A DNA stretch of 64,000 nt from the NCBI GenBank assembly GCA_033763315.1, contig JANRKS010000029.1:1-64000 (forward strand), given 5' to 3'. This document shows, piece after piece, positions 29,292 to 31,240 of this stretch; position 1 is the first letter of the stretch; each line of letters begins with the position of its first letter. Both the position numbers and the translations under genes were made by a program. Below the pieces are notes generated by a model. It did not search any database, had not been told where the DNA came from, and worked only from the letters and a program-made list of their open reading frames with translations. The DNA is from Deltaproteobacteria bacterium. GTDB taxonomy: Bacteria; Myxococcota_A; Polyangia; Fen-1088.

Positions 29292-30440
29292 ATGCCGCTT
29301 GGCTTTACTTTGTTGAACCGCGACGCCGGCACGCGGGCGCGGCGGGGCGTGATCCACACGCGGCGCGGTGACGTGCAAACGCCGGCTTTCATGCCGGTGG
29401 GAACGCGCGCCACGGTGACTGGCCTCACCGCGCAAGAAATGGTGGAGCTCAAAGCGCCTGTGTTGTTGGCCAACACCTATCACTTACTCATCCGCCCGGG
29501 CCCCGAGTTGTTTCGGCGCGTGGGAGGCATCCACAATTTCATGAAGTGGCCGGGGCCTGTGCTCACGGATTCGGGTGGCTATCAAATCTTCTCGCTGCCA
29601 GGAGAACGCACGATCAGCGAACAAGGCGCGCGGTTCACAAGCTATGTGGATGGGCGCATCTTTAAGTTGTCGCCGGAAGAATCCATCGCAATGCAAACGG
29701 CGATTGGCTCCGATATCATGATGGTGTTGGACGAATGCGTGCGTTCAACCGTGGATGCGTCGGTGGCTCGTTTGGCCATGGAGCGCACGCACCGCTGGGC
29801 CTTGCGCAGTTTGGCCGCGCGTAGCAACCCCGAGCAAGCTTTGTTCGCGATCATGCAAGGTGGCTTGGAACGCGACCTGCGTAAGCAATCTGCTGATTTT
29901 CTCACGCAGCATCCCTTCGATGGTTTTGCTGTAGGCGGCCTTGCGGTGGGGGACACACGGGCGCAGCGTGAGGATATGACGGCGTTCGCGGCAGATCTGT
30001 TGCCAGCCGACCGGCCTCGCTATCTGATGGGCGTGGGCACGCCTCCCGATCTCATTCACGCGATTGGGTGCGGCATCGACATGTTCGATTGTGTGATCCC
30101 CACGCACTTGGCGTGGCAAGGCACGGCGTTTACGTCCACGGGCCGCGTGCGCGTCACGCGGGGGCCGAACGCTTTGCTCGACACGCCGCTTGATGAAGGT
30201 TGTGCTTGTTTTACCTGCACGAACTTTACGCGCGCCTACCTTTACCACCTGATGAAATGCAGCGAGCCGCTTGGCCCACGCCTGCTTTCGATTCACAACC
30301 TGCACTATTACATCACGTTGATGCAGCAAGCGCAGGCGGCCATCGAACGTGGCACCTACGCAGCCTTCGCCAAAGAACGTTTGGCCGAGATGGATCACCA
30401 CGAACACGCCCCCGGCAAAGCAACGGGTGGAGCTGCATGA
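29292..30440 (+). CDS. tgt: tRNA-guanine transglycosylase-family protein (divergent TGT)
   Basis: [47 protein letters not shown], Zn site CACFTC...HN. Confidence 0.93.
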
Positions 30441-31240
30441 CCTGCGCTGTTGTCAAAACAACCGCGGGCAAAGCAGCGATGCTTGATGTGGAAGCCGGCG
30501 AAATCATGCACCCTGGCGTTGGACCGCTGGTTGAAGCGCAGCAACTTTATGTGCAGCAATCCCGCCTGCAAGAACGATTGGCCGGGCAACATGAGCCGCT
30601 CGTCTTGTTTGATGTGGGCTTGGGGGCAGGCTCGAACGCGGTGGCGGCCTGGATGGCCGCGGCCGAGGTGTCTGCGCCTGCCGCACGCTTGCACATCGTG
30701 AGCTTCGAACGCGATCTGAGTGCGATCAATTTAGCGCTGCAACACGCCGCCGATTTTGGGATCACCGAGCAAGTCGCGGTGGCCGTGCGCGGGTTGCTTC
30801 ACGAGGGCGCCGCAGAAGCGCCCCACGCTTCGTGGCAGCTGCGGCAAGGGGATTTGTTGGCCTGTTTGGCCGACGAGACCGCCAAGGCGGATGTGGTTTA
30901 TTGGGACCCGTTTTCGCCCAAAACCAACCCTGATCTGTGGACCGTGCATGCGTTCGCCCTGTTGCGTGCGGCGTGCGGCCCACGCGCGCAGCTTTTCACA
31001 TACAGCGCTTCAACCACGGTGCGCGTGGCCATGTTGCTCGGGGGCTGGTGCGTGGGGGTGGGCGACGCGATTGGCGATAAGCGCGCCACCACGGCGGCGG
31101 CGATGCGTGTTGAAGATCTGCGGCAACCGTTAACCACGCCGTGGCTGAAACGCTTAACTTTGCCTGAGGCGCGCATGCCCGTTGACGCCGGCCCCGACGC
31201 CCTGGCGCGGGTGCGGGCGTGCCCTCAGTTCAACATCTAA
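30437..31240 (+). CDS. Stand-alone MnmC2/MnmD-type SAM-dependent methyltransferase
   Basis: EIMH...GP..EA...[40 protein letters not shown] overlap with the tgt stop. Confidence 0.85.

Follow-up and report, generated by a model that had tools for sequence, protein, structure and literature searches.

Background and comparison with described systems

Bacterial queuosine biosynthesis is thought to follow a single route once prequeuosine 1 (preQ1) has been inserted, with QueA acting next and then QueG or QueH. To our knowledge, the paralogs of tRNA-guanine transglycosylase (TGT) with new roles have so far been enzymes of DNA modification (DpdA), and we know of no description of an N-methyl-preQ1 nucleoside in cellular RNA. 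The present analysis concerns two overlapping genes in a 64,000-nucleotide stretch of a Myxococcota genome (contig JANRKS010000029.1, positions 1 to 64,000; hereafter the window), namely a TGT paralog termed tgt2 (29292-30440, plus strand, encoding TGT2 of 382 aa) and the gene of a predicted MnmC2-like class I N-methyltransferase (30437-31240, plus strand, 267 aa) that falls in a divergent, tgt2-linked subfamily. A first-pass annotation of the window had put them forward as a candidate module for N-methyl-preQ1 or another new deazaguanine. The pair is best explained as a module of Myxococcota in which two enzymes modify nucleic acid, in parallel to the ordinary queuosine pathway.

The canonical arrangement, in which tgt (Tgt, EC 2.4.2.29, which exchanges G34 for preQ1 in the tRNAs for Asp, Asn, His and Tyr) adjoins queA (encoding S-adenosylmethionine:tRNA ribosyltransferase-isomerase), resembles this pair in that a TGT gene lies beside the gene of a S-adenosylmethionine (SAM)-dependent enzyme which alkylates the aminomethyl nitrogen of inserted preQ1 (QueA in the canonical case, and in prospect the methyltransferase here), and in that the catalytic aspartates, the base pocket and the zinc site are common to TGT2 and canonical Tgt. 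It differs in that the partner of TGT2 is an MnmC2-type methyltransferase and not QueA, and in that TGT2 belongs to a clade of its own, in which the equivalents of Lys52, Arg286, Arg289 and mostly Glu235 are replaced. Residues are numbered throughout according to what we take to be the numbering of the Zymomonas mobilis enzyme (Asp102, Asp280, the pocket residues, Lys52, Glu235, Arg286 and Arg289).

MnmC2/MnmD (A. aeolicus DUF752, structure 3vyw; N-terminal domain of Escherichia coli MnmC) N-methylates the aminomethyl group of a position-34 base, and the partner of TGT2 shares with it the fold (TM-score of 0.71-0.74 to 3vyw), motif I and the motif IV DXFXP. The tgt2-linked methyltransferase differs from it by a score under the curated threshold, by being joined to a TGT and not to the MnmC1 oxidase, and by its occurrence in genomes in which searches for MnmE and MnmG gave neither.

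In Vibrio phage VH7D, the transglycosylase DpdA2 and the methyltransferase DpdM yield methyl-preQ1 (PMC10516641), as is proposed here for the TGT2 pair. The occurrence of methyl-preQ1 in phage DNA, which the first-pass annotation had mentioned, is therefore real, but the enzyme that makes it, DpdM, is a DUF3109 metal-binding protein unrelated to the present methyltransferase; its DpdA partner is a distant TGT branch, the target is DNA and the system is phage-borne (PMC10516641). The pair does not belong to the DpdA/DpdM type: TGT2 is of the bacterial Tgt type, its partner is a PF05430 and not a DUF3109 protein, and the neighbouring genes are unrelated.

Fusions of MnmC2 with TGT (COG0343/PF01702 plus an MnmC2 domain), which have the same domain architecture as the tgt2-methyltransferase fusions described below, are named in one sentence of a survey of genomes encoding MnmA, MnmG and MnmE, and the available text of that survey gives them no interpretation, paralogy analysis or product (bioRxiv 10.1101/2023.12.21.572861). 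The accessible part of a 2016 review of deazaguanine paralogs mentions DpdA only (PMC5699537). Apart from this listing of fusions, no description of the tgt2 paralog clade, of its residue signature or of the proposed product was found in the literature search.

Phylogeny and residue signature of TGT2

TGT2 matched the Pfam TGT family PF01702 from end to end, with 460.5 bits against a cut-off of 26.3, and passed the Tgt equivalog model TIGR00430 with 435.6 bits (cut-off 306.75). All motifs quoted in the first-pass annotation (DSGGYQ, DEC, QGG, GGLAVGD, DMFD, CxCxxC...H, TVTGL and PTHLAWQG) are present in the protein.

A phylogeny of 52 distinct TGT segments from the loci was produced as a quick tree with IQ-TREE, using as sole support the Shimodaira-Hasegawa-like approximate likelihood-ratio test (SH-aLRT); duplicates and segments below 320 aa were excluded, the partial copy of locus L005 among them, and the root was set arbitrarily on a third paralog group. 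The 17 tgt2-type rows formed one clade (SH-aLRT 99), which excludes the canonical copies found in these genomes, and 16 of them are linked to a methyltransferase gene, the 17th (L098) being partnerless. This clade comprises a subclade of 11 separate-gene rows (10 linked ones and L098; support 99) and a subclade of 6 rows with fused genes, which come from families f52, f66 and f8 (support 96). The tgt2 genes are paralogs of the canonical ones and share one origin.

The tree also held a third TGT paralog clade (GAIRTL, FDECL and [PA]TRHARG; SH-aLRT 100), present beside canonical and fused copies, with members at loci L085, L087, L090, L095 and L097 (genomes G307, G367, G287, G292 and G302). Two to three TGT matches were likewise obtained in many further genomes of the phylum sample described below.

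Residues were compared between 26 members of the tgt2 clade and 30 canonical TGTs. Invariant in the 26 members are the Asp of DSGG, the Asp of D[ML]FD, the Cys of D-x-C (DEC in TGT2, the middle residue being variable across the clade), the Gln of QG, GGLAVG and the CxCxxC...H zinc ligands. TGT2 itself retains the catalytic Asp102 and Asp280, the pocket residues Asp156, Cys158, Gln203, Gly230, Leu231 and Val233, and the zinc site, with the exception of Glu235, which is replaced by Asp. On the strength of these conserved catalytic residues, TGT2 is predicted to be still an active base-exchange enzyme.

Residues used (Lys52) or presumed to be used (Arg286 and Arg289) for anticodon-loop recognition are not kept in TGT2. 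Lys52 (position 43, Thr in TGT2) is Lys in 30/30 canonical enzymes and in 0/26 clade members, which have Thr (19), Ala (1) or, in the 6 fused rows, Arg; Arg286 (position 272, His in TGT2) is Arg in 30/30 canonical enzymes and 1/26 clade members; and Arg289 (position 275, Trp in TGT2) is Arg in 30/30 canonical enzymes and 0/26 clade members, 18 of which have Trp. The TVTGL and PTHLAWQG deviations singled out at first pass are consequently not chance features of one protein, the three basic positions being replaced in 25-26 of the 26 members of the clade. Among the 120 fused proteins listed of 347 database matches (see below; all counts of database fusions refer to these 120), the Thr of [TS]VTG is found in 112 of the 112 covering the site, GG[LV]AVGD in 115/119 and AWQG in 119/120, and Arg is kept at position 286 in 7. 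As the replacement residues are themselves conserved, they point to a new constraint and not to decay.

Lys52 forms a salt bridge to Glu339' and makes extensive contact to uracil 35, and the K52M exchange lowers kcat more than 10-fold (bioRxiv 10.1101/2020.09.01.277731), which agrees with the contact between Lys and U35 given in the first-pass annotation. The role assigned there to the Glu in the preQ1 peptide switch is also found in the literature, since Glu235 backs the Leu231/Ala232 flip by fixing this peptide in the orientation suited to preQ1 or to guanine, and specificity for preQ1 versus queuine is set by Cys158 and Val233 (PMC3660597). In the tgt2 clade the Glu235 position is Asp in 20/20 unfused members and Glu in the f52/f66 fused subclade, and the pocket-size residues Cys158 and Val233 are retained.

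The linked methyltransferase

The methyltransferase matched Pfam Methyltransf_30 (PF05430) with 64.2 bits and the NCBIfam MnmC2 model NF033855 with 90.2 bits, under the cut-off of 136 of this equivalog. The same holds for all seven TGT-linked copies scored (60.8-90.2 bits, the six others at 60.8-75.0), in contrast to the stand-alone copies of family f21 from genomes bearing MnmE and MnmG, which reached 134.6-141.8 bits when scored as partial segments, 3 of 4 being over the cut-off. Motif I (GLGAGSN) and motif IV (DPFSP) are both present; the forms (GX)GXGXN and DXFXP define MnmC2/DUF752, and the Asp of motif IV is the catalytic base (PMC3527978). In an alignment of 51 homologues D157, P158, S160, G61, G63 and N67 do not vary and F159 and P161 hardly vary, and DPFSP is found in 112/120 of the database fusions.

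The AlphaFold model of the protein (mean predicted local distance difference test, pLDDT, of 92.9) gave 3vyw, 2qy6 and 3ps9 as top structural matches, the closest being A. aeolicus MnmC2 (3vyw, 24% identity) and E. coli MnmC; the next neighbours after the MnmC family were aminopropyl transferases (spermidine synthases) and m4(2)C synthase. With a class I fold carrying the MnmC2 motifs I and IV, the partner of TGT2 is predicted to be an N-methyltransferase. It is the only PF05430 protein of the genome, and no MnmC oxidase reached the cut-off anywhere in the genome, which extends to all contigs what had been noted at first pass for the window.

Linkage and fusion across genomes

In a phylum sample of 401 genomes, a methyltransferase match was obtained in 45. 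All strong matches had a TGT directly upstream, 50-73% identical to TGT2, and the weak ones (family f21) had none directly upstream. Linkage was counted on 27 methyltransferase loci other than the one in the window (L004, L005, L007-L019, L042 and L124-L134), and in 26 of them tgt2 immediately precedes the methyltransferase gene in the same orientation; the two genes form a single open frame in 6 of the linked loci, and at L133 tgt2 is in pieces over several frames. A database search limited to longer proteins gave 347 matches, and all 120 listed combine PF01702 and PF05430, with a median length of 672 aa and the TGT part first in 109/109 proteins in which both motifs were found. The co-occurrence or fusion expected from the first-pass annotation is observed.

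Fused proteins are encoded by the cultured Anaeromyxobacter paludicola, A. diazotrophicus, A. oryzae and A. oryzisoli and by strain Red801, which makes the module directly testable. The public records name these fusions just 'Tgt' and the JGI label of many separate methyltransferases is 'queuine tRNA-ribosyltransferase', which constitutes an annotation issue. A search of 50,697 phage and 72,556 plasmid records for the methyltransferase gave no close relative, the best match being 31% identical.

Genome G275 holds two full tgt2-methyltransferase pairs, on contigs C2 and C3 (L042/L096 and L010/L088). At L098 (G365:C21) a second tgt2 copy lies between the open reading frame (ORF) of a GNAT acetyltransferase and a cyclophilin gene; GNAT as a second type of amine-modifying partner was considered and rejected, as the arrangement does not recur (0/25 GNAT loci with a TGT or methyltransferase nearby). 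The five ORFs tried in the neighbourhood of L004 gave no Pfam match.

Canonical tgt and the queuosine pathway

The genome (7.63 Mb in 40 contigs, 90.85% complete) contains two TGT genes. The other copy, on contig C19, is located directly after a QueA-like ORF, reads TVKSL, GGLSVGE and PTRNARNG, and scored 489.8 bits on TIGR00430. The queC, queF and queG genes are also in the genome, and the que genes found sit on contigs C6, C19 and C34; none was seen among the 10 long ORFs scanned between 21252 and 41253, the full 64 kb not having been scanned for every que family. The second, canonical tgt and the queA and queG genes that the first-pass annotation had proposed to look for are therefore all present, and together with queC and queF they make the queuosine pathway complete without tgt2. 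With a separate canonical tgt adjoining queA and tgt2 placed in its own clade, tgt2 is not the orthologue that feeds QueA and QueG. Nor does the case foreseen at first pass apply, in which this would be the sole tgt of the genome and make ordinary Q34, as the canonical gene on C19 is only 44% identical to it.

Across the other module genomes, that is, those with the tgt2-methyltransferase pair, a canonical tgt was present in 13/13 tested with a canonical-TGT query. QueA was present in 23/23 tested, which include these 13, and QueF together with a true QueC (scoring above 200 bits or interrupted by contig ends) in 13 of the same 23. A second, divergent QueA-like gene (126-178 bits, versus about 290-427 for the main copies; frames of 530-650 aa) was observed at G501:C219, G542:C7, G395:C112, G507:C11, G380:C101 and G275:C1.

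The pathway to the MnmC2 substrate

The C-terminal domain of MnmG and MnmE's N-terminal domain, each searched with one domain model, had no match in the genome. The best GIDA match is a 450-aa protein encoded beside topA, whose size and position suggest TrmFO. MnmE was found, again with one domain model, in 0/61 genomes of the family (f1) and in 0/25 of its high-quality ones, and the methyltransferase occurs in 36 of these 61 genomes and in 17 of 19 genera. Of the module genomes examined from other families, 13 in all, MnmE and MnmG are both missing in 5 and both present in 8; the 5 include one that is 100% complete and one 97%-complete assembly of 5 contigs, and with the genome of the window they bring the module genomes without MnmE and MnmG to 6. 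All five control genomes with a stand-alone MnmC2-type gene (5/5) have both MnmE and MnmG.

As MnmE and MnmG, which make the substrate of MnmC2, were not found, the methyltransferase cannot simply be MnmC2 in this genome. A plain MnmC2 role was one of two outcomes open to an in silico check that would have counted against the first-pass annotation, the other being a sole tgt, and both results favour the latter. From the same searches, family f1 seems to be a lineage without the xm5U34 wobble modification.

Proposed function

The reading that we prefer, with a probability of roughly one half, is that TGT2 inserts preQ1 into RNA with altered loop recognition and that its partner N-methylates the aminomethyl group of the inserted base. 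TGT2 would remove guanine and insert preQ1 made or salvaged by the cell, in an RNA target or loop context that would differ from the canonical U33-G34-U35 recognition, because the basic residues on which canonical TGT relies around U35 are replaced in TGT2. The MnmC2-like partner would then methylate, with SAM, the inserted preQ1 at its free aminomethyl nitrogen, and the product would be 7-(methylaminomethyl)-7-deazaguanosine. It is in this way that we infer which base is inserted, what accepts the methyl group, in what order the two steps take place and that RNA is the target: N-methyl-preQ1 in RNA is the simplest outcome given a preQ1-type pocket, a rewired RNA-facing surface, a partner whose family methylates position-34 aminomethyl groups, and genomes without nm5U.

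Several points weigh against this reading. Linkage is not complete, the methyltransferase of L128 having no adjacent tgt2 (the tgt2 of this genome, 86% identical, is on another contig beside a histidine kinase) and the tgt2 copies of L098 and L135 having no adjacent methyltransferase. In the 8 of 13 outside genomes with MnmE and MnmG, the linked methyltransferase is the sole PF05430-type match (E <= 1e-5) and could serve mnm5s2U synthesis, and the searches for MnmE and MnmG used a single domain model each, in a genome of the completeness given above. The contacts of Arg286 and Arg289 with RNA are presumed from the 2003 TGT-RNA structure, and the literature searched did not yield them. The replacement of Glu235 by Asp in most members might change the inserted base from preQ1, and N-methyl-preQ1 as product is a prediction.

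Neither true QueC nor QueF was found in 10 of the 23 module genomes tested, which also bears on the supply of preQ1. QueA requires preQ1-tRNA, and the presence of QueA and of canonical tgt in all genomes tested for them implies that preQ1-tRNA is formed, so that the genomes without QueC and QueF apparently import a precursor and salvage preQ1; their absence was on these grounds set aside as a contradiction of a preQ1 substrate. The genomes with tgt and queA and without true QueC or QueF are G380, G275, G125, G365, G400, G307, G302, G292, G367 and G287.

Alternative explanations

Fusion proves a common pathway or a common substrate molecule, not a common atom, and the partner could therefore act elsewhere on TGT2-bound RNA, at another atom, on a neighbouring nucleotide or with another SAM-derived alkyl group, as its structural neighbours beyond MnmC, the spermidine synthases and m4(2)C synthase, would also allow. 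For its nearest relatives by sequence and fold, the methyl acceptor is nevertheless in every case the aminomethyl nitrogen of a position-34 base and the DXFXP motif of N-methylation is kept, so that this explanation, the least improbable of the alternatives, is judged unlikely. The order of the steps could also be reversed, free preQ1 being methylated first and N-methyl-preQ1 then inserted by a TGT2 with an altered pocket. The exchange of Glu235, which backs the switch peptide opposite the aminomethyl group (PMC3660597), for Asp in 20/20 unfused members and 115/119 database fusions is consistent with such an order, and the report on DpdM, in its available text, leaves open whether methylation takes place on the base or after insertion (PMC10516641). 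We nonetheless consider it quite improbable, since the f52/f66 fused subclade keeps Glu235, Cys158 and Val233 still keep the pocket small, and the characterised relatives MnmC2 and A. aeolicus DUF752 work on tRNA-bound nucleosides (PMC3527978).

That both proteins have ordinary functions, TGT2 being a redundant Tgt isozyme and its partner a plain MnmC2/MnmD joined to it through their shared work on the anticodon loop, is very improbable. The score of TGT2 above the NCBI Tgt equivalog cut-off, the public naming of the fusions as Tgt, and the 8 of 13 outside module genomes that have MnmE and MnmG with no other PF05430 match found would fit it. It is opposed by the contrast in the family between MnmE (0/61) and the methyltransferase (36/61), by the 6 module genomes without MnmE and MnmG, by the canonical tgt already present in every module genome tested, by the loss in the clade of three basic residues which the canonical TGTs compared all share, and by methyltransferase scores under the MnmC2 cut-off in 7/7 copies. 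We give least weight of all to a DNA-level 7-deazaguanine system that would mark DNA with methyl-preQ1 as DpdA and DpdM do: TGT2 is a full bacterial-type Tgt (435 bits) and not of the DpdA type, no DpdB-like or restriction genes adjoin the pair among the 10 long ORFs of 21252-41253, neighbourhoods vary between loci, and the phage and plasmid records held no methyltransferase relative closer than 31% identity. Such a system would draw on the existence of mdPreQ1 in phage DNA (PMC10516641), on the activity of bacterial TGT on dU-containing DNA in vitro (PMC5699537) and on the lost RNA-loop contacts, which would suit a new substrate.

Gene neighbourhood

The ATG of the methyltransferase gene (30437-30439) shares bases with the TGA of tgt2 (30438-30440), and the resulting ATGA overlap (30437-30440, plus strand), already described at first pass, was confirmed on the window sequence and indicates translational coupling. 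Upstream of tgt2 lies a short intergenic leader (29230-29291, plus strand) without riboswitch match or promoter consensus. The TACGGT hexamer reported at first pass is present in it (29280-29285, 6 nt before the ATG), but its role as a start signal is unsupported. No sigma-70-like promoter was found in 28900-31500, no riboswitch or other Rfam family matched at E up to 1 in 28300-31500, and the window contains no tRNA gene.

Downstream, a G+C-rich hairpin of 11 bp at 31250-31278 (no strand assigned) separates the pair from a convergent gene, in keeping with the boundary previously placed at 31252. It is likely a terminator, possibly serving both directions, and has a terminator score (T-rich tail) on the minus strand only, that is, for the convergent gene (31285-35712, minus strand), which encodes a 1475-aa protein with DUF6797, PA14 and several cytochrome c domains. 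On the other side are found a 932-aa sulfatase (23949-26747, plus strand), with a MopE-type metal-binding motif N-terminal to the catalytic domain, followed by YaeQ (26750-27310) and then a GH6 glycoside hydrolase (27352-28395, minus strand). None of these neighbours is related to the pair: among 10 long ORFs scanned between 21252 and 41253, 3 had no Pfam match and the others represent PQQ/cytochrome c, sulfatase, YaeQ, GH6 hydrolase, multi-haem cytochrome, isocitrate/isopropylmalate dehydrogenase and MutS2 families.

Significance

We suggest tentatively, at somewhat less than even odds, that Myxococcota run a second dedicated 7-deazaguanine pathway, in which a neofunctionalised TGT, with a conserved Thr...AWQG signature in place of the basic residue that contacts U35 and of those near it, would for this reason install preQ1 at a site outside the range of the canonical enzyme, and the inserted base would be capped as N-methyl-preQ1. 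This base may be carried by tRNAs beyond the four GUN species, or by non-tRNA RNA. If true, the module would add a second branch at the RNA level, in which two enzyme folds that are both well known give rise to a new modified base, it would illustrate the recruitment of an enzyme of wobble uridines to the amine of a deazapurine, and it may reveal a rewiring of the loop recognition of TGT.

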